Shown: piece after piece, positions 3,765 through 63,815 of the stretch
Numbering within the stretch: the first letter of the stretch is position 1
Layout: each line of letters opens with the position of its first letter
The notes under the pieces: generated by a model
Seen by the model: only the letters and a program-made list of their open reading frames with translations
The model's database searches: none
What the model was told of the DNA's origin: nothing
Position numbers and translations under genes: made by a program
Assembly: GCA_965207225.1 (NCBI GenBank)
Contig: CBDBLV010000005.1
Coordinates: 1,696,001 to 1,760,000, forward strand
Direction of reading: 5' to 3'
From: Dehalococcoidia bacterium
GTDB lineage: Bacteria > Chloroflexota > Dehalococcoidia > Plut-88900
DNA: 64,000 bases

Positions 3765-5735
3765 CTAGATGGAACGGGCAGTTCGATGGCCGTCCACTAC
3801 GGCTACCTCTATGTCCCTGGGCTGGAGGGCGTCGCCGATTAGGTGGAGGTCGAGGGCGCTGTCCTTGAGGTCCCGGTAGAGGGTGTCTACTGCCTGGCCG
3901 CCGGCGGCAATTACCACTGCGTCGATGTCCGTGATGTAGCGAGGCTCCCACGTGACCACGTCATAGACGTATAGCGAATCTTCCAGGATTTCGAAAACGC
4001 CGGTAAATGGGGTCATCTTCACACCCTTGCGGAGCAGGCTTTCGTAGAGGTGCTGCCAGAGGGGCGGAGTTATCTCCCGGCCCACGTACTGAAGGCCCGT
4101 AACTATCTCCACAGACTTGCCGCTGGTCACCAGATAGTCGGCGACGGTGGAGGCCTCTGGGAGGCCTTGGGTGTCGATAACGACGATCCGCTCACCCAGC
4201 TCGGCCGATCCGTTGAGCACTTCCCAAGTCGTGAGAACGTTCCGGCCTTCGGCCCCCGGGATTTCGGGGATGTAGGCGGAGGAGCCGGTGGCGACTACTA
4301 CGGAATCGGGGCTTTCGGCGAGGATGAGGTCGGGGGTGGCCTCGGTGTTGAGGCGGACATCGACCCCCAGCCTGCCGAGCTGTCGCTCGAAGAATAACAC
4401 CACCTCCTCGAAGTGGTCCCGACGCGGTGTCTTCATTATCAGGCCCAGCTGTCCCCCGAGCCTCGGACCTTTTTCAAAGAGGACGACATCGTGGCCCTTC
4501 ATGGCGGCGGTGCGAGCGGCTTCCATACCCGCTGGGCCTCCCCCGACGATTACTATTTTCTTCTTCTCGGGGGCGGGAGGAAGGATGCTCCAGTCTTTCT
4601 CGCGGCCTGTGACGGGGTTGTAGATGCACCCGACTCCTAACCCAATGAGGATGTGTCCTGCGCAGCTCTGATTAGTCCCGATGCAATAACGGATCTCGTC
4701 CGAACGGCCTTCTTTGGCCTTGTTGGGAAGATGGGGGTCGGCGATGAGTGCCCTGACCATGCCGACCATGTCCACCACCCCGTCGGCGACGAGGCGCTCG
4801 GCAAGGGCGGGGGAGTCAATGCGGCCCGCGCCGATGATTGGCAGCCCGACGGTCTGCTTGATCTCGTTGGCCTTGTAGACGTACTGGCCCGGCTCCCGGT
4901 AGTAACTGGGCCAGTGGTCGGCGAAGGACTTGGGGTCGGGTATGGCGCCCTGCCAAACGTTCAAGAAGTCGATGGCGCCGGTCTGCTCCAGCAGGGGGGC
5001 GATGGTCTTCAGCTCCGACATGCCGACGCTGTAGTCGACCATGTCGTCGTACATGCGGATGCCGAGGAGGAGGTCGGGGCCGAGGGCCTTGCGGCAGCCT
5101 TCGACGATCTCATAGAGGAAGGTCATGCGCTGTTCAACGGTTGAGCCGCCGTACTTGTCCGTGCGGCGGTTGGAGTCGGGGCTAAGGAACTCGGCGACGA
5201 GATATCCAAGGCCGACAAGGAGCTCGACACCGTCCAGCCCGCCCTCGCGGACACGGGCGGCGGCATCGTAGAACTGCCGGACGGCTTCCTCAACCTCCTC
5301 GGTGGACATCTCGTGGGGCATGTACTGGGGACTGCCGAAGTGGGGCGGGGGCACGGCGGAGGGCGCCATGAGGGGTCGGCCCAGGACGCCCGCGGAATCG
5401 ACTACAGCCCGTCCCCGGTGTCCGAGTTGCGCCAGCAGGGGGGTGTCGAACTCGTGGGTGGCTTCGGACATGCGTCGGTAGACGGGAATGACCCGGTCGT
5501 CGTAGTTGGCCATGGACAGGGGAATCTCGCCGTCGTTGTAGACGACGCTGTGACCTATGACGACCATGGCAGCGCCGCCCTTGGCCCGTTCGCGCACGTA
5601 GTGGACGTACCGTTCGTCGGGGAGGCCGCCCTCGCCCTGGTAATGAGCGGCGTGGCCGGCGTTAACTATCCGGTTCCTGAGAGTGTACTTCCCGACCCTG
5701 ATAGGTTCGAACAGGTGAGGAAAAGGGATGGCCAC
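3765..5735 (-). CDS. Old yellow enzyme / FadH-like NADH:flavin oxidoreductase
   Basis: LRNRIV, QLGHRG, NRRTDKYGGS, CIGTNQSC...CIYNP Fe-S motif, GGGPAGMEAA; GTG start at 5735 with AAGGAG RBS (ORF track overextends to 5999). Confidence 0.92.
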   Translation of the reverse strand: MAIPFPHLFEPIRVGKYTLRNRIVNAGHAAHYQGEGGLPDERYVHYVRERAKGGAAMVVIGHSVVYNDGEIPLSMANYDDRVIPVYRRMSEATHEFDTPLLAQLGHRGRAVVDSAGVLGRPLMAPSAVPPPHFGSPQYMPHEMSTEEVEEAVRQFYDAAARVREGGLDGVELLVGLGYLVAEFLSPDSNRRTDKYGGSTVEQRMTFLYEIVEGCRKALGPDLLLGIRMYDDMVDYSVGMSELKTIAPLLEQTGAIDFLNVWQGAIPDPKSFADHWPSYYREPGQYVYKANEIKQTVGLPIIGAGRIDSPALAERLVADGVVDMVGMVRALIADPHLPNKAKEGRSDEIRYCIGTNQSCAGHILIGLGVGCIYNPVTGREKDWSILPPAPEKKKIVIVGGGPAGMEAARTAAMKGHDVVLFEKGPRLGGQLGLIMKTPRRDHFEEVVLFFERQLGRLGVDVRLNTEATPDLILAESPDSVVVATGSSAYIPEIPGAEGRNVLTTWEVLNGSAELGERIVVIDTQGLPEASTVADYLVTSGKSVEIVTGLQYVGREITPPLWQHLYESLLRKGVKMTPFTGVFEILEDSLYVYDVVTWEPRYITDIDAVVIAAGGQAVDTLYRDLKDSALDLHLIGDALQPRDIEVAVVDGHRTARSI

Positions 5736-5746
5736 CTTCCGCTCCT

Positions 5747-6838
5747 TTAGCGCACTGCGGCCTTGGCCTCGTTGGTGAGTTCGTAGGTGACGGGTTTCCG
5801 GTTGGGGTTGGGTATCTTCACGTTGAGCTTTTCGAGCTCGGGCCAGATGTTCTTCTTGAACTCGGTCCCGAAAGCTGCACCTCCCACCCTTGCCAGCCTG
5901 TGGCCCGGCCACCGACGCCGGATTATGTCCTGGCAGTCGGTGCTCTTGAATGCGCCGACAGGTTGCTCCCGGACGATGGCCCGGGCCATGTCTGCCCATG
6001 GACTGCCCTGCGCGGCGAGAGGCGCCGGAGAAAAGGGAGGGGGAGTCGGGGGCGCCTGCGATATAGAAGGGGTAGGTGAAGCCGCAGGCGTGGGACGTGC
6101 GGGCCGTCTGGAAACACTGGGGCGGCTCCTGGGCGGTGAGGAAGAGTAGGACCTGGCAGAGCGGTGATCAGCGGAGACTACGTGCAGAAGGTCTCGGGGG
6201 AAGAACTGCTTGACGTTGGCGGAAAGAGACTTGTGACGGTTCGTGACTGCCCAGAGGAAGGGCATAGGACCCCGGGAGCCATCGACCTCGTCGCGAATGG
6301 CAGCGTAGAGGGAAATGAAGTCGCTGTCGTCACTGAAGACGACGATGTGGCCTATTCTGCCGCGCACGAAATCGGCGATTGCGTTGGTGGCCATGGCGAT
6401 GTCGGCGGAGTTCTTGGAGGAATCCCGGCTGAAGTGCTGGATGCCCTTCACCAGGACCTGGATGCTGCTGAACTGGTCGACCGCCCACAGTCGCCAGAGC
6501 TCGACCTGGTCTGCGCGTACGTAGAGGGTCATGCGGGAGGGGGCGGGGGTGGTGCTGGGCCAGTTAAACATTAGTGAAGATATCAGGGTTTGGGCGTCTT
6601 CCTGCAGGTTCTCGACGTCGATATATACGCCGGACCCCTTGGAGCCCTTGTTGGTTCTATAGTTCAGGGTCTTTCCTCCTGGGTTGCTTCGGGTAGAAGG
6701 TTCGGTAGAAGTCTGGATAACTCGTATCTCGGCCTGATGGTGAGACCTGGAAAATGGAGAGGCCAGGATGCGCCCCAGGCCCTTAAGACCCGATCCACGA
6801 TTGCTTTCACTTGATGGAGAGAGAGAAGAATTGTCCAC
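5747..6838 (-). CDS. NYN domain (PIN-like, LabA/DUF88) putative ribonuclease
   Basis: YIDVEN, KNSADIAM, SDDSDF acidic motifs; Pro/Ser-rich linker and small C-terminal domain; start uncertain. Confidence 0.8.
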   Translation of the reverse strand: MDNSSLSPSSESNRGSGLKGLGRILASPFSRSHHQAEIRVIQTSTEPSTRSNPGGKTLNYRTNKGSKGSGVYIDVENLQEDAQTLISSLMFNWPSTTPAPSRMTLYVRADQVELWRLWAVDQFSSIQVLVKGIQHFSRDSSKNSADIAMATNAIADFVRGRIGHIVVFSDDSDFISLYAAIRDEVDGSRGPMPFLWAVTNRHKSLSANVKQFFPRDLLHVVSADHRSARSYSSSPPRSRPSVSRRPARPTPAASPTPSISQAPPTPPPFSPAPLAAQGSPWADMARAIVREQPVGAFKSTDCQDIIRRRWPGHRLARVGGAAFGTEFKKNIWPELEKLNVKIPNPNRKPVTYELTNEAKAAVR

Positions 6839-7410
6839 TATTGCGTCCGTCCATTTCTTTGACTTGGGTCACAGGTGAGAATATCGAGAACCTGAGGCAG
6901 GGCCGACTCGGCTCGTTCCAGCAGAGCAACGTTGTCCAGGCTGCCGATGGGGTGCCGGACCCGGGCGTAGGGGTAGTCGGGGATGCCCCTCATGCGGGCT
7001 ATGGTCCTGGCGGGTATCTCGAACTCCTCGGTGATGATGACTGCGGTGGGTATTCCGTTCAGTTCCAATTCTATACCGTCGTGCAAACTGCACTGGCTGC
7101 AGGAGCCTCAGTCCCCGATGGCGAGCACCGCGATGTCGCACTCATTGGCGATTTGGAATATCAGGGAGGGGGGAGCGGGTCGGGTGGCGTCGGCCTTGGA
7201 GTAACGCACAATCCGGGTGGAATCCATTTCCGCAGCCAGCAAGGACGATAGCTTGTCCAGCAGGTTGCCGGCGTTGATCTTGGTGTTATCGACCAGGGCG
7301 ATAGTCTTGGCGTCCAGACCCGAGGGACGCGGCGCCATCGACACGCTGGCCGGTGGAGTTTCACCTCGGGGGTCCATGACCGGTATTCCTATGGGGTCTG
7401 GACTCGTCAT
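6838..7410 (-). CDS. UGSC-family selenoprotein (190 aa, Sec at UGA 7108-7110)
   Basis: Frame is continuous across TGA: ...DIAVLAIGD-U-GSCSQCSLHDGIELELNGIPTAVII...; ATGA overlap with upstream gene; ORF track splits it in two. Confidence 0.88.
7072..7098 (-). promoter_or_regulatory. Candidate bacterial SECIS element
   Basis: GCC-A-GUGCA-GUU-UGCAC-GAC-GGU; upper stem begins 14 nt 3' of the UGA, with G in the apical loop. Confidence 0.55.
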
Positions 7411-8450
7411 ATCGCACCTCCTGGTTTGGAGATCAGCGGTCGGGTGACGCTGCGGCTGTAATCGACCTCGCTGCCCCATGATACGAGGAATGCCGAGAAA
7501 CCGCCTGCACTCCCTCCCGCGGGTATGATTAGAAAGTCGTCGGGGAAAGCGGCGACTCCGGGCAGCCCTACTCCCTCCCGGAATTCGTTCTTCCCGCTGT
7601 CGGGGCGGGACCTCCAGTAGTCCATGGGCCTCTGCGTCGCCTCGTGGAGGAACTGCTGCACGTCTTTCTTGCTCCACCCGGCTCGTAGGATGTGATTTAG
7701 GTGCTCGGGGACGAGGATGACCATGATCTCGCAACCGCGGGCGTAGTAGGGGTAGGCGACGATGGCGTCGGCGATTCGGGTCAGGACTTCCTCTGCACTG
7801 TTGCTGCGGTGGTCGGAGACCTGGACAGGGGCGTAGCAGGCGAAGGCGGTCACTGCGTCTGTGGACTCGGGGATGCCGTAGTCGGAGCGGAGAGGAGGCC
7901 AGGGGGTCAAGGACTCGTCCTCGGAGATGCAGGAGGTGAACTTGCCCGGATTCCCGAGCGTCGACTTGTCCAGCACACCGGGCAGGGCCCCGCACACGTT
8001 CATCAGGATGAGTCGTATGGCCCTGCCGATGGTGGCGTTAGCCCGGGCCCCGGGGCCCAGCATGTTGACACCGCAGTTTATGCCAATCTCATCGACAATT
8101 GTCCCGCCGACCACCAGCATGTGAGAAGCGCCGGAGGTGCTGGCGGCGGTGGCATTGAGGCTGAACTCATCATCGACCATGGCCTCTATTCCGGCGACTA
8201 TGACCGGCATATAGTCGGGGAGGCAGCCGGCCATGATGGCGTTGAGGGCTACCTTCTCGGCGGTGATGGGGATTGCGCCGACGGAAACGGTGCCGACAAC
8301 GTCGTTGGGGCTCAGGGTGGCGGCATCCAGGAATTGGGCGAGGCGGTTGGGGGTGGGGGGAACAACAGGTAGGCCGTCGGTGAGGCCCTGCTGGAAATAG
8401 TATTCAACGGCCTCGAAGTAGTCGAGAGCCTGCTGGGGATTGGGTGACAC
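7407..8450 (-). CDS. Conserved hypothetical protein (TDGLPVVPPT family, typical UGSC neighbour)
   Basis: GLTDGLPVVPPT, AIMAGCLP, RANATIGRAIRL, TLGNPGKF; GTG 8450 with GAGG RBS (alternative start 8468). Confidence 0.8.
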   Translation of the reverse strand: MSPNPQQALDYFEAVEYYFQQGLTDGLPVVPPTPNRLAQFLDAATLSPNDVVGTVSVGAIPITAEKVALNAIMAGCLPDYMPVIVAGIEAMVDDEFSLNATAASTSGASHMLVVGGTIVDEIGINCGVNMLGPGARANATIGRAIRLILMNVCGALPGVLDKSTLGNPGKFTSCISEDESLTPWPPLRSDYGIPESTDAVTAFACYAPVQVSDHRSNSAEEVLTRIADAIVAYPYYARGCEIMVILVPEHLNHILRAGWSKKDVQQFLHEATQRPMDYWRSRPDSGKNEFREGVGLPGVAAFPDDFLIIPAGGSAGGFSAFLVSWGSEVDYSRSVTRPLISKPGGAI

Positions 8451-25686: not shown

Positions 25687-26607
25687 CTACGGAGCTTCGC
25701 AGAAGGGCAGTTTTAGACGGTAAGTGTATCTATCCGTAATGGACCGCCATGTGTGCGGTTTACATCCCGTCAGTTGGTTGCTGTACAGAGACAACGATTC
25801 CAGCTTGTCCAGATCACCTAGTTCAGGAGGAATGTCTCCGGTAAACCCTCCGCTGAGCTCTAGCACTTCTAACCTTCTCAGATTGCCCAGTTCACTAGGT
25901 ATCTCTCCTGTCAAATCATCGCCACGCAGCGTCAACTCCTTCAACCTTCTCAGATTGCCCAGTTCAGGAGGTACCTCTCCGGTAAGCTCAGGTGCGAGAT
26001 ACAGCACTTCCAGCCTTCTCAGATTGCCCAGTTCAGGGGGTATTTCTCCGTATGCTCTGTTTAGCTTTAGCACTTTCAAACTGCTCAGATTGCCGAGCTC
26101 AGGGGGTATCCCTCCCTTAAACCATCCATGTAGGTCCAACACTTCCAGCTTGCTCAAATTGCCCAGCTCAGGGGGTATCTCTCCCTCGAACACATCTCCA
26201 AACCCGGGTGCGCCAATATCCAGCAGGGTGATGCGCCCCTCGCCATCGGTTTTCATCCCTCCGCTCCAGTTCTCATGGCCAGTAAACAGGTCGATATTTT
26301 CGAGGAACGTTCCCCATCTATCGAGAAGCGTGTCTTCCTCTTGAGTAAATGACTTCCATTGCTGGATAGTTGGGTCGGTCTCCCATTGATGGCGAGGTGC
26401 GATAAAATATATGTCAAAAAGGACCTCCTCAGCGATTTTCCCATTAGTTGAGTGGAAAAACGCAACCATAGCGGCCTTGTCGCCTTCAGCGCTGCCCCCG
26501 TCCCCCGAGCAGCCCTGCGTCCATTGGACTCCACCTACCACAACCAAAAGCAGCAAGAGCGCGCGGGTCATCCTTCGTCGCACGAACCTTTTGAAAACGG
26601 CTCTCAT
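25687..26607 (-). CDS. Eukaryote-like (plant-type) leucine-rich repeat protein, probable lipoprotein
   Basis: Six GxIPxELGxL repeats; basic plus hydrophobic N-terminus followed by QGC; ATGA overlap with upstream gene. Confidence 0.88.
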   Translation of the reverse strand: MRAVFKRFVRRRMTRALLLLLVVVGGVQWTQGCSGDGGSAEGDKAAMVAFFHSTNGKIAEEVLFDIYFIAPRHQWETDPTIQQWKSFTQEEDTLLDRWGTFLENIDLFTGHENWSGGMKTDGEGRITLLDIGAPGFGDVFEGEIPPELGNLSKLEVLDLHGWFKGGIPPELGNLSSLKVLKLNRAYGEIPPELGNLRRLEVLYLAPELTGEVPPELGNLRRLKELTLRGDDLTGEIPSELGNLRRLEVLELSGGFTGDIPPELGDLDKLESLSLYSNQLTGCKPHTWRSITDRYTYRLKLPFCEAP

Positions 26608-27632
26608 CCACCCAACTCCCCCCTCACCACCCGGGCCCCGTCCACCAGCGCCTTCAGCTTGAGATACGAAATCCACCTGGGCAACTGGAAGAACCCGCAG
26701 TCGGGGTTGAGGTGTAGCTTGTCGGCTGGGACGTGCTGCAGTACCGCTCGTATCCTCTCCGCCACGTCCTCCGCCGACTCCAGGTAGAAGGACTTGATAT
26801 CCACCACCCCCGCCCCGAGCTCTTTTCCTCCATCGAACTTCTTCCAGATGTTGGCCTCGCTCATTTCTCGGTTGGCAAATTCGAGGACTAGCTGGTCGGC
26901 GTTGACGTTGTTCAGGGCAGGGAACATCCAGCCATAGGACCGTTTGCCTCGGGGCCGACTCATAAGGTTGCCGAAGCAGATATGGAGGGCGTGCTTCGCC
27001 TCCACCCCCTCAATGCAGGCGTTGTAGAGCCTAACCCACTCGTCCACCTCTCCGGGAATGACGGCATACGAAGGCTCATCCAGCTGGATGTATTGGGCCC
27101 CTTCCGACACCAGGGCCTTCAACTCCGCGTTTATCACCTCGGCCAGCTGCCAGCAGATCTCCAGCTGGTTCTTATACGCAGTCCCTGGCCTGATGTGTAT
27201 GGTCATTGTCAGGGGCCCGGGGCACGTGACCTTGATTGGCTTCCTGGTATTGGCCTTTGTGAACTTGAACTCTTCCACAATCCCCAGCCCCGAGGGCAAC
27301 GTGAGTTTCTCGACGGCGCGGTATCGGGGAGGGGTGTCGTAGCCGTAGAGACCTGTCTTGCGAAGGGGAGGTTCCACGACTAGCCCCGTCATCCGTTTGG
27401 GAAAGCTCTGCACGAAGTACCACCGCCTCATCTCCCCATCCGACACCACATCTACGCCCGCCCGTTCCTGGTCCAGTATGGCCATTCGACAGGCATCGTC
27501 GTAAAGCTCTTTGGTGTCGGTTTCGCCATATTCGCCCTGGTCTATCTTCTCCAGGGCCGTGAGCATCCAGCCGGGATATGCGTAGCTGCCGATCACGCTG
27601 GTCGGAAGAATTGGCAGAGAATCGCTGTTCAT
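26604..27632 (-). CDS. Cobalamin-independent methionine synthase II-like (single MetE barrel)
   Basis: TSVIGSY, SDGEMRR, IQLDEP, HICFGN, LEFA, NPDCG. Confidence 0.9.
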   Translation of the reverse strand: MNSDSLPILPTSVIGSYAYPGWMLTALEKIDQGEYGETDTKELYDDACRMAILDQERAGVDVVSDGEMRRWYFVQSFPKRMTGLVVEPPLRKTGLYGYDTPPRYRAVEKLTLPSGLGIVEEFKFTKANTRKPIKVTCPGPLTMTIHIRPGTAYKNQLEICWQLAEVINAELKALVSEGAQYIQLDEPSYAVIPGEVDEWVRLYNACIEGVEAKHALHICFGNLMSRPRGKRSYGWMFPALNNVNADQLVLEFANREMSEANIWKKFDGGKELGAGVVDIKSFYLESAEDVAERIRAVLQHVPADKLHLNPDCGFFQLPRWISYLKLKALVDGARVVRGELGG

Positions 27633-47014: not shown

Positions 47015-48091
47015 CTAGGCAGGATTTATATACAGCACTTTGACTTCGTGCTCATCTGTATTCTGGGTATCGATGGTTAAGCTGAGTTCAGATTCTAGCG
47101 ATAGGTTAAGGCCTCCCCAAAGATAATGATCGTTCCATGCAAAATCATATACTGCTAGTCTATCATCATCCATAACGTACCCGTCAGGCTTATATACAAA
47201 AACAGAAAAATCGCAATCTAGTGTGGCGGTTACTTTAACTAGAAGTTGGGTGGAAGATAATTCTCGCACGTCCAAAACGTGCAAATCACTTATTCCATAT
47301 AAGCGATCCAGAAACGGTGATTCGTATTCTACGGATAGTCCCAGGTCGGCGGGGTCCCATTCGTAACCAGAGTAGATCTTTAAAAGGGAGTCCACAATCA
47401 TTCTTTCAGTGTCCAAATCAAGCTGGGATAATTTGAGCCTTGGGCGTACATAAACGTCCACAAATTCCGATAGTGAAGGCATTAAGACCACTTTATCTTT
47501 TGATATGCCACGCAGTTTCAAGTCATTGATAAGGTCTGGATGTAAGGAATTCTTTTTCTTCTTGTGCCTCTTACCTTTGTCGTCCTTGTCTGTGTTGGCA
47601 AAGTCTGGATCCTCCGATACAAGTATAACTGGATCGCTTACAGCAGAGGCCAAATCTATTACCGTGTCCCATACCAACGCATCTCTGTAACCCGATCCGG
47701 TTTCATCGAACGGCTTTTGTCTAGACGCGGCTCGGTGCACCAAATCTTCATGTAGCGTGGTTGGATATTCCACGATAATTGAGCCAGATTCATTGATTTT
47801 GGATTCGAATCTCTTCAGATATTGTGCATTCTCCGTTTCCTTATCAAGATTGTCTATCGAGGATTGGAGACATTGCCCCAGACGTCTAGAAAGGAAGTCC
47901 AGACCTTTGCTTACTTTCTTCGTCTCGCGATCCAGCATCCTGGCAAAATCAGCGGCAACTTCCACAAATACAAGTTTCGGAACACAGACCTTATAACCAG
48001 CGAGGGATGACGTCGAAGTAAATAACTCAAAAAGACGGCTATCCCCGTAGCCCTCGCTGATGATTACACTGGAATCCAAAACAACATACAT
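47015..48091 (-). CDS. PIN domain protein (DUF4935-like), low GC
   Basis: VVLDSSV, KPF...GYRDALVW, VSEDPDF; AT-rich relative to flanks. Confidence 0.82.
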   Translation of the reverse strand: MYVVLDSSVIISEGYGDSRLFELFTSTSSLAGYKVCVPKLVFVEVAADFARMLDRETKKVSKGLDFLSRRLGQCLQSSIDNLDKETENAQYLKRFESKINESGSIIVEYPTTLHEDLVHRAASRQKPFDETGSGYRDALVWDTVIDLASAVSDPVILVSEDPDFANTDKDDKGKRHKKKKNSLHPDLINDLKLRGISKDKVVLMPSLSEFVDVYVRPRLKLSQLDLDTERMIVDSLLKIYSGYEWDPADLGLSVEYESPFLDRLYGISDLHVLDVRELSSTQLLVKVTATLDCDFSVFVYKPDGYVMDDDRLAVYDFAWNDHYLWGGLNLSLESELSLTIDTQNTDEHEVKVLYINPA

Positions 48092-62904: not shown

Positions 62905-63029
62905 ACGTCGCATTCTAACAGGCAATCTGATTTTATATTCGGGAATTTCTGCTTCTTTACAAAGCCTCACACGATTGCGGTGACATTTTGTATACGATAC
63001 CCTTTTCAAAACACATTGGAGCGAGTGTT

Positions 63030-63815
63030 ATGGCCAGATTTCTACATAGGGCAGAAGTACAGGAAGAGAGGGACCGCATAATAGATAGCGCGGAATCTAT
63101 CCTCTACATTATCAGTCCATACATACAGATCAATTCTTGGACAAAGGAACTCATTGAAGGAACTGAGTCGGATGACATTGACGTGAATGTCATTGCAAGA
63201 CAGCAGAAAGGAAAGCGCCGGCATGTGAGAAAAACGGACGAGGAATTTCTGATGTCGTTGAACTGGGTCACAACAAGTTACTGTCCAGCCCTACACTCCA
63301 AATGCTACTTAAATGAGAATGAGGCACTTGTAACATCTATGAACCTTACCCAAGGATCTGAGTACATCAACTCGGAGATGGGAATATTAGTAGTAGCAGA
63401 AGACGAAGAAGAGTTGTACGATGATATCCTAAACGAATGCAGATACATCGAAAGCAAGAGCGAGTGTGTATCAGGGCCAAAGCGGAGGCCTGTGAGAAAC
63501 GTGGTGTACATCGAAGGCCAAGGCGTAGAGGCAAAGGGACACTTGATAAAAGGCAACAGATTTGAGGTACATACCGGATCGACGGCACTGCTTGACCCAT
63601 CGCCTTCTCTGAGTATAGAGAACTTGGCGGCGCGTGATCATTGCATAAATGAAGACTGGCTTCGTAAAGACGGACAGGTGTATCGCTTCGCTATCCCCAT
63701 CATGTTCCCAGATCCGTCTACGGCAGCTAGCGTGATATTAGGTATTAACGCTAACGGATATAGAAGGTGGAAAAGCAAGAGGGGGAAACCTCTTTCGGAG
63801 GTAAGGAGGCGCTGA
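63030..63815 (+). CDS. PLD-nuclease domain plus DUF4357 domain protein, low GC
   Basis: [23 protein letters not shown]; C-terminal F.DPSTAA..ILG..ANG...WK. Confidence 0.78.

Follow-up and report, generated by a model that had tools for sequence, protein, structure and literature searches.

A UGSC-family selenoprotein gene and its unnamed partner gene at a Dehalococcoidia locus

The window analysed here is a stretch of 64,000 nucleotides (nt) from a Dehalococcoidia bacterium, and the system in question is a pair of its genes that, as read from the sequence, lie with the whole locus on the minus strand: first the gene of a partner protein of unnamed family, then that of a selenoprotein of the UGSC family. 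Two open reading frame (ORF) fragments, 7108..7995(-) and 6838..7086(-), fuse across a TGA at 7108-7110 into a protein of 190 amino acids (aa) that reads ...DIAVLAIGD-U-GSCSQC...IELELNGIPTAVII...RHPIG and has a single recoded codon, U101. Translated with TGA as selenocysteine (Sec, U), the UGSC gene occupies 6838..7410 (-) and comprises the 190 aa and a TAG stop; its redox motif U101-G-S-C104 spans 7099..7110 (-), from the Sec codon to the Cys104 codon at 7099-7101. A hairpin of the selenocysteine insertion sequence (SECIS) type, with a stem GUGCA/UGCAC of 5 bp and a loop GUU, is located at 7081..7093 (-) and begins 14 nt past the UGA. The partner gene, 7407..8450 (-), encodes 347 aa from a GTG at 8450 and carries the stretch TDGLPVVPPT. 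Both genes share an ATGA overlap at 7407..7410 (-), formed by the partner stop TGA (7407-7409) and the UGSC start ATG (7408-7410), and a Shine-Dalgarno-like AGGAGG at 7417..7422 (-) stands 6 nt ahead of the UGSC ATG, inside the end of the partner gene. The original prediction for this DNA had described the 190-aa frame across one TGA, the ATGA overlap and the hairpin 14 nt downstream, and all of them were confirmed on the minus strand. Alternative partner starts are found at ATG 8462 and GTG 8468 (353 aa). To judge from the alignment, GTG 8450 is more likely than GTG 8468, since the alignment with P0003, its closest relative (347 aa, 96% identical), begins at query residue 8; AGGAAAGG, seen ahead of GTG 8450, was also counted toward the choice of start.

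The UGSC protein exceeds the curated cut-off of NCBIfam model NF041046, 'UGSC family (seleno)protein' (144 bits against 125), and that of Pfam PF24696 (181.4 bits against 25, over profile positions 2-171 of 172), so that its earlier assignment to a known selenoprotein family without a function holds. The family was described in 2007-2008 as 'UGSC-containing protein' by Zhang and Gladyshev (PMC1976440, PMC2398784), and the UGSC passages of a 2026 review (PMC13188914) place it among the proteins whose functions remain largely uncharacterised, grouped with Trx-like-fold proteins. No function for UGSC, or for DUF6282, a family considered below, turned up in the literature searched, part of which was covered in its passages on UGSC. 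Annotation by PGAP/RefSeq labels relatives with 'UGSC family (seleno)protein'. A scan of one genome per species gave 521 UGSC relatives, from which the best 80 loci were kept; because one of the two search patterns required a Cys codon, Sec forms are if anything under-sampled. Identity of the window protein to any of the 80 loci is at most 49%. In 42 aligned members G99, U/C101, G102, S103, C104 and S105 are invariant, and the invariant motif of the family is G-D-(U/C)-G-S-C-S. By these comparisons the window protein is a genuine selenoprotein of the already named UGSC family, divergent but otherwise an ordinary member, and no new selenoprotein was found. Nothing essential distinguishes it from its family, the window copy having Gln106 for Ser and, as a consequence, a shorter hairpin.

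At the column of the UGA the 80 loci, which belong to several phyla, give 81 matches, 55 with TGA and 26 with Cys, so that aligned homologues are found with either residue; the full-length homologues in the protein database have Cys there in nine of nine cases. Downstream of the TGA the reading frame of the relatives is open and conserved. The Sec forms among them share a 6-7 bp hairpin, consensus UCGUGCA-GUG-UGCACGA with GUG as the loop, that begins 12-13 nt past the UGA, and the two bottom pairs were lost in the window because the Gln106 codon CAG replaces the usual Ser codon UCG (window 7081-7098). Over 30 sequences 97.1% of the hairpin cells are paired, a level reached by 2 of 500 shuffles, and slid controls stay at or below 68.6%. 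Compensatory changes occur at two hairpin pairs, in loci L011 and L021, and a third pair has gone from C-G to G-C in L086 and L090, both of them proteobacterial Sec forms. Within the hairpin the five third-codon positions average 0.08 bits of entropy in Sec forms (each 0-0.25; computed on 50 unique of 56 sequences), against a mean of 1.35 bits at 14 positions outside it; among the 26 Cys forms these five lie at 0.89-1.17 bits, with no freeze. Since the synonymous freeze is found in Sec forms only, it goes with the UGA rather than with the protein. The comparison shows, as far as sequences can tell, that UGA 7108-7110 is decoded as Sec101 under the direction of the short downstream hairpin. No Rfam family was found at threshold, and minimum free energy failed to tell Sec from Cys forms (-10.8 versus -9.7 kcal/mol in Cys forms rich in guanine and cytosine (GC)).

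In a Paracoccus locus (L086) selB is located 3.3 kb from a Sec-form pair, and two 'hypothetical proteins' (95 and 80 aa) in the annotation correspond to the halves of UGSC, split at the UGA; in this record, from Paracoccus ferrooxidans (4396-4965), the halves stand as separate proteins, and in an Acidovorax locus (L090 5416-5904) only the first half of the Sec-form UGSC is annotated. A quick Sec/Cys tree of UGSC, poorly resolved and with long branches, gives at least 4 changes, and no history is drawn from it. A screen of the window for other selenoprotein genes gave two implausible antisense candidates; it was crude, missed UGSC itself and is uninformative.

A UxxCxxC arrangement is a feature of GrdB, and such a site had been pointed out in the window protein; as a signature of the family it is not supported by the alignment. 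The third Cys is present in the window (UGSCSQC) and in 54 of the 55 Sec forms of the loci, whereas none of the 26 Cys forms has it; in the two proteobacterial Sec forms L086 and L090 its position is taken by Trp. In the window its codon (C107, 7090-7092 (-)), a UGC, is part of the 5' arm of the hairpin, and because the codon lies within the stem, the UxxCxxC pattern may owe as much to RNA as to protein.

Neither the window's partner by itself nor any of 69 aligned members, searched at E<=10, matches a Pfam or NCBIfam family, and public sources annotate the partner as 'hypothetical protein'. Its profile found nothing related among PDB sequences (a single match at E 1.4), nor did the UGSC profile, for which the best match was a 3-hydroxyacyl-CoA dehydrogenase at E 0.049. 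The partner family comprises at least 4667 representative clusters (50% identity) at E<=1e-3, with 1054 at E<=1e-30. Counting residues from GTG 8468, residue conservation on the minus strand marks D31-G-L-P-x-x-P-P-T39 (8352-8378), A80-G81-C82 (Cys82 codon 8223-8225), C180 (codon 7929-7931), and G148-R149, E183 and W190, which are invariant or nearly so. Over 281 copies of the partner domain D31, G32, P34, A80, G81, G148, R149, E183 and W190 are essentially invariant; in non-gap rows family-wide, C82 is kept in 269 of 275, C180 in 257 of 276 and E183 in 276 of 276, and six family members carry A, V or G at position 82. When only the 79 partners linked to UGSC are considered, C82, D31 and R149 are each found in 79, as is the whole A80-G81-C82, and position 180 is occupied by Cys in 58 and by Val in 1, the remaining 20, all of them Nitrospinota-type, having Thr. 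To judge from these alignments C82 is the sole universal cysteine of the partner, because it is kept in every UGSC-linked partner and C180 varies. Cys180 was considered as a contact of UGSC and rejected on its replacement by Thr and Val, although tandem partner forms of ~710 aa that carry no UGSC domain are also without this residue. On haloarchaeal plasmids (L087 3319-5981; L091 4279-6978) two complete partner paralogues with all conserved residues kept flank UGSC; paralogue pairs and tandem forms hint at a dimeric partner.

The partner adjoins UGSC in 77 of the 80 loci, and in the three misses the contig breaks off 151-296 nt from UGSC. Both genes share a strand in each of the 77 pairs, the partner coming first in 48 (Chloroflexota, Nitrospinota-type) and UGSC in 29 (Actinomycetota, Acidobacteriota); overlaps of 1 or 4 nt occur in 16 pairs, and a further 15 are separated by 0-30 nt. 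Of the 15 plasmid records listed that have a partner, haloarchaeal ones among them, 14 also carry UGSC adjacent or fused. Both proteins occur, moreover, in a single chain. From the best 150 partner matches, 55 extended proteins with roughly at least 70 residues beyond the partner match were picked by eye, and 30 of them carry UGSC, 9 as whole domains, 17 as pieces starting just past the Sec column and 4 as pieces ending at profile position 92, immediately ahead of that column. Pieces cut exactly at the Sec column are what would be expected if gene callers break Sec-containing fusions at UGA. Conversely, nine of 18 long UGSC proteins contain the partner domain, and the other nine are fused to thioredoxin-reductase-type domains. 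The unknown part of the 'UGSC/Unknown_1 fusion' in the 2008 paper (its Figure S1) is probably the partner domain. Genome comparison thus shows UGSC to be an obligate companion of the unnamed 347-aa partner, in the sense of an obligate genetic association, and this coupling is a stronger result than the selenoprotein identity. The two-subunit idea of the original prediction is largely borne out as far as functional coupling goes, the genes being adjacent in most loci and often fused.

When the 42 UGSC members were compared one by one with NCBIfam at E<=10, 30 matched TIGR01917 (best E 2.4e-6) and 27 matched TIGR04483 (best E 3.4e-4), with further selenoprotein B matches to TIGR01918 (23), GrdF (19) and GrdH (14). 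Residues 88-157 of the window protein, spanning U101, align with TIGR01917 positions 334-397 of 431 at E 0.12. The weak matches of UGSC are to selenoprotein B and Rossmann-type families, and no thioredoxin-fold family is among the 12 Pfam families matched by any of the 42 members at E<=10. We take this as evidence that UGSC is remotely related to the Sec-bearing part of selenoprotein B, of which it would not be a member. The likeness to the GrdB/PrdB Sec site that had been proposed from the window has, hence, a profile basis, albeit a weak one whose matches stay below the cut-offs; the proposal that the partner is no detectable relative of GrdE/PrdA stood, as 0 of 69 partner members match those models.

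With selenoprotein B (GrdB, GrdF, GrdH and PrdB; TIGR01917, TIGR01918, TIGR04483, NF040794 and NF040795) the UGSC system has in common the U-x-x-C motif, a larger companion and thioredoxin-system genes, which Grd operons also carry. It differs from GrdB in size, UGSC having ~180 aa and the GrdB model 431 positions, in a companion unrelated to GrdE/PrdA, and in its hosts, among which are actinomycetes, Roseobacteraceae and haloarchaea rather than amino-acid-fermenting anaerobes as for selenoprotein B. With thioredoxin-type carriers UGSC shares the U/CxxC motif, the fusion to thioredoxin-reductase-type domains and the replacement by a redoxin in partner fusions; it differs from them in being dedicated to one partner instead of acting as a general reductant, and in having no thioredoxin-fold Pfam match. 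The partner, in turn, is like the PrdA/GrdE proproteins a larger subunit beside a selenoprotein, with an invariant G81-C82 that is in principle a candidate cleavage site, whereas it has no sequence similarity to them and no maturation gene of the PrdH kind was recognised.

Reductase modules are joined to the partner as well as to UGSC. One protein is a fusion of the partner and Pyr_redox_2 (P0202), another of FeThRed_B and the partner (P0186), and a third of a UGSC piece, the partner and FeThRed_B (P0280). Five partner proteins have an AhpC-TSA/Redoxin domain in the place of UGSC, and a sixth, P0190, matches one weakly. Six redoxin-partner fusions (P0164, P0172, P0181, P0190, P0218 and P0273) have CxxC in 3 cases and CxxT/S in 3, and share a [PF]GC[GA][SA][KR] stretch in the linker before the partner domain; the linker Cys, in a setting reminiscent of (U/C)GS, may stand in for the U/C of UGSC. 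The gene order is trxB-trxA-partner-UGSC in Arthrobacter and partner-UGSC-trxB in Roseovarius, and in a Variovorax locus trxB is located two genes upstream. Recurrent annotated neighbours are TRAP/TTT/MFS transporters, LysR regulators, family III CoA-transferases, CoA ester lyases, short-chain dehydrogenases/reductases and DUF6282, and they point to catabolism of small organic acids or amines. A conserved third gene was looked for and rejected, no neighbour family being found in more than 16 of the 80 loci, and those 16 being from one clade. In two unrelated bacteria, Vibrio europaeus and Sporomusa termitida (L084 2055-6062; L093 2553-7707), a fused UGSC-partner adjoins aconitase X and DUF126, neighbours that may be a clue to the substrate pathway.

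On balance we consider it probable that the two translationally coupled genes specify a two-component thiol/selenol redox enzyme, in which UGSC relays electrons from a thioredoxin-reductase-type donor to the partner. In the model, UGSC would be the small redox subunit and consist of an alpha/beta domain that is a distant relative of the Sec-bearing region of selenoprotein B. Electrons would pass from NAD(P)H to a thioredoxin-reductase-type flavoprotein, with or without thioredoxin, then to the U/CxxC motif of UGSC and finally to the partner; in some lineages they would reach UGSC from ferredoxin through a module of the ferredoxin-thioredoxin-reductase type. This route is suggested by the fusions and the gene neighbourhoods. 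By analogy, Sec101 would attack the partner active site, the target being the invariant Cys82 itself or a substrate adduct on it, and Cys104 would resolve the intermediate, giving rise to an intramolecular Se-S bond. Subsequent re-reduction of this bond would be accomplished by the thioredoxin-reductase-type flavoprotein or the ferredoxin-thioredoxin-reductase module, and not by the flavoenzyme encoded farther along the locus in the window. The partner, with D31, C82, R149, E183 and W190, would be the substrate-binding catalytic subunit, and the overall reaction would be reductive, acting on a small organic acid or amine that the cell imports. Linkage to trx genes that is only occasional is as expected if a housekeeping thioredoxin reductase usually serves.

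A number of observations weigh against this reading, at one or another of its steps. Regarding the decoding, the window hairpin GUGCA-GUU-UGCAC folds at -5.3 kcal/mol, the weakest value of the family (relatives range from -7.6 to -15 kcal/mol), and 49 of 200 shuffles fold as well, so that it is not significant alone; over the wider 76-nt stretch the figure is 180 of 200. The window hairpin is meaningful through comparison with its relatives only. The 64-kb window contains no tRNA-Sec (tRNA-Gly only), and no sel domain was found among the 52 window ORFs scanned with Pfam out of 57 picked by script. Regarding the relation to selenoprotein B, the 11.2 bits of the window protein against TIGR01917 are far under the cut-off of 602.2, and Pfam GRDB (PF07355) is matched at E<=10 by none of the 42 UGSC members, nor by the window protein; a 'Trx-like fold' is, besides, what the UGSC passages of PMC2398784 and PMC13188914 assign to the family. 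Regarding the coupling, a Haladaptatus plasmid carries the partner without UGSC, and 18 of the 55 extended partner proteins have no recognised extra domain. Regarding the electron supply, trxA is found in 6 and trxB in 3 of the 80 loci, and trx linkage in 3 of 13 annotated plasmid loci, a minority in each case; in the window, tblastn queries with trxA and trxB gave no match, and no thioredoxin domain was found by the Pfam scan. As for the partner, finally, its chemistry is inferred throughout.

The alternative that survives best, and that we nevertheless regard as unlikely, is the strict Prd/Grd-like reductase of the original prediction, in which the partner would undergo self-cleavage at G81|C82, the resulting pyruvoyl group would hold an amine as a Schiff base, Sec101 would attack the alpha-carbon and cleave the C-N bond, and the Se-S bond formed with Cys104 would be reduced by the thioredoxin system. 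PrdA makes its pyruvoyl group from Cys421, for which bound PrdB is required, and Sec151 of PrdB attacks the substrate, the U151C variant being inactive (PMC11229817); the passages searched of that 2024 paper cite no experimental structure, and the terms PDB and cryo-EM are absent from the paper. A pyruvoyl group arising from Cys with PrdB bound, the matches of UGSC to selenoprotein B models around the Sec site, the invariance of A80-G81-C82 in UGSC-linked partners together with the family-wide retention of C82, and the occurrence of thioredoxin-system genes and fusions would all fit such an enzyme. However, the partner is unlike the GrdE/PrdA models, six family members have A, V or G where the pyruvoyl precursor should be, and the Pfam scan of the window shows no grdA, grdC/D, prdC or prdH-like gene. 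Moreover, a plain redoxin with CxxC or CxxS/T replaces UGSC in fusions, which suits a reductant module better than a substrate attacker.

It is improbable that the pair serves sulfur, selenium or Fe-S trafficking, with UGSC ferrying a persulfide, a perselenide or a cluster between the partner and acceptors. An extra C-terminal NifU-like domain in the UGSC of an Arthrobacter locus (L081, 5054-5869), a 653-aa protein with UGSC and partner domains (P0292) that one source calls NfuA, and genes for DsrE, TusA and cysteine desulfurase near the Paracoccus pair would agree with it. Yet such links are seen in 2-3 cases only, the Paracoccus genes are on the opposite strand, reductase-module fusions dominate (9 of 18 long UGSC proteins), and the genes that recur nearby encode transporters, CoA-transferases, lyases and LysR regulators. 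That the UGA is a plain stop, leaving a 100-aa fragment and a separate 82-aa ORF or a pseudogene beside a chance hairpin, is hardly credible, for while the window hairpin is not significant alone, Sec machinery is not seen in the 64-kb window and gene callers do split such genes, the TGA stands at the identical column in 55 loci of several phyla, with Cys in 26, ahead of an open and conserved frame, the synonymous sites are frozen in Sec forms only, with compensatory changes of pairs, and the Pfam match spans both halves.

Downstream of UGSC the window departs from its relatives. An NYN-domain ORF of 363 codons (5747-6838 (-), Pfam E 7e-9) is located between the UGSC gene and that of a two-domain Old Yellow Enzyme (OYE)/FAD flavoenzyme (3765-5732 (-)) of the 2-naphthoyl-CoA / 2,4-dienoyl-CoA reductase type (6qkg 4e-95, 1ps9 3e-80). 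The GTG start of the NYN ORF shares the last base of the UGSC stop codon (TAGTG), and the GTG start of the OYE gene lies 15 nt past the NYN stop, behind AGGAG. The flavoenzyme had been placed downstream of UGSC and proposed as its possible electron source. Its gene is not the adjacent one, the NYN ORF intervening; with this, and with each of the two genes found in 0 of the 80 related loci, the proposed electron source is not supported, and both genes were rejected as conserved members of the system. Since it is absent from all related loci and has no PDB relative, the NYN ORF looks like a lineage-specific insertion into the operon.

The window as a whole (1-64000) finds its nearest relatives in Dehalococcoidia/SAR202 genomes and is a catabolic island where paralogous families abound, with four luciferase-like monooxygenases, two family III CoA-transferases, several amidohydrolases, two Rieske oxygenases, two phosphotriesterase-family genes and two MetE-like genes. 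A leucine-rich-repeat ORF (25687-26676) has a lower third-position GC, and ORFs 47015-48091 (-) and 62988-63815 (+) have third-position GC values of 0.44 and 0.50 against ~0.75 elsewhere. One of these two carries PIN_12 and the other PLD-like and DUF4357 domains, and they may be foreign or defence-related insertions.

Taken further, and as a tentative suggestion only, the two-component redox enzyme could stand for an unrecognised class of Sec/Cys-dependent reductases in which a miniature relative of selenoprotein B works with an unrelated catalytic subunit of ~350 aa that replaces GrdE/PrdA, driven by thioredoxin reductase. In such a class G81-C82 may mature to a pyruvoyl group, and the reaction might be the reductive cleavage of an imported organic acid or amine; the class would be widespread in aerobic heterotrophs (SAR202/Dehalococcoidia, Nitrospinota, Actinomycetota and Roseobacteraceae) and in haloarchaea. 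The system-level picture was not found in print in the literature searched for UGSC, covered in part through its UGSC passages. Sec forms of UGSC are routinely split or dropped by annotation, and the partner family, large as it is, is modelled by neither Pfam nor NCBIfam. Natural Cys forms are known from named strains, among them those of Roseovarius, Arthrobacter, Pseudonocardia and haloarchaea, and hence the enzyme can be reconstituted without selenium biology. UGSC, until now an abundant orphan, becomes part of a defined and testable three-part system made of a thioredoxin-reductase-type donor, UGSC and the unnamed partner family.

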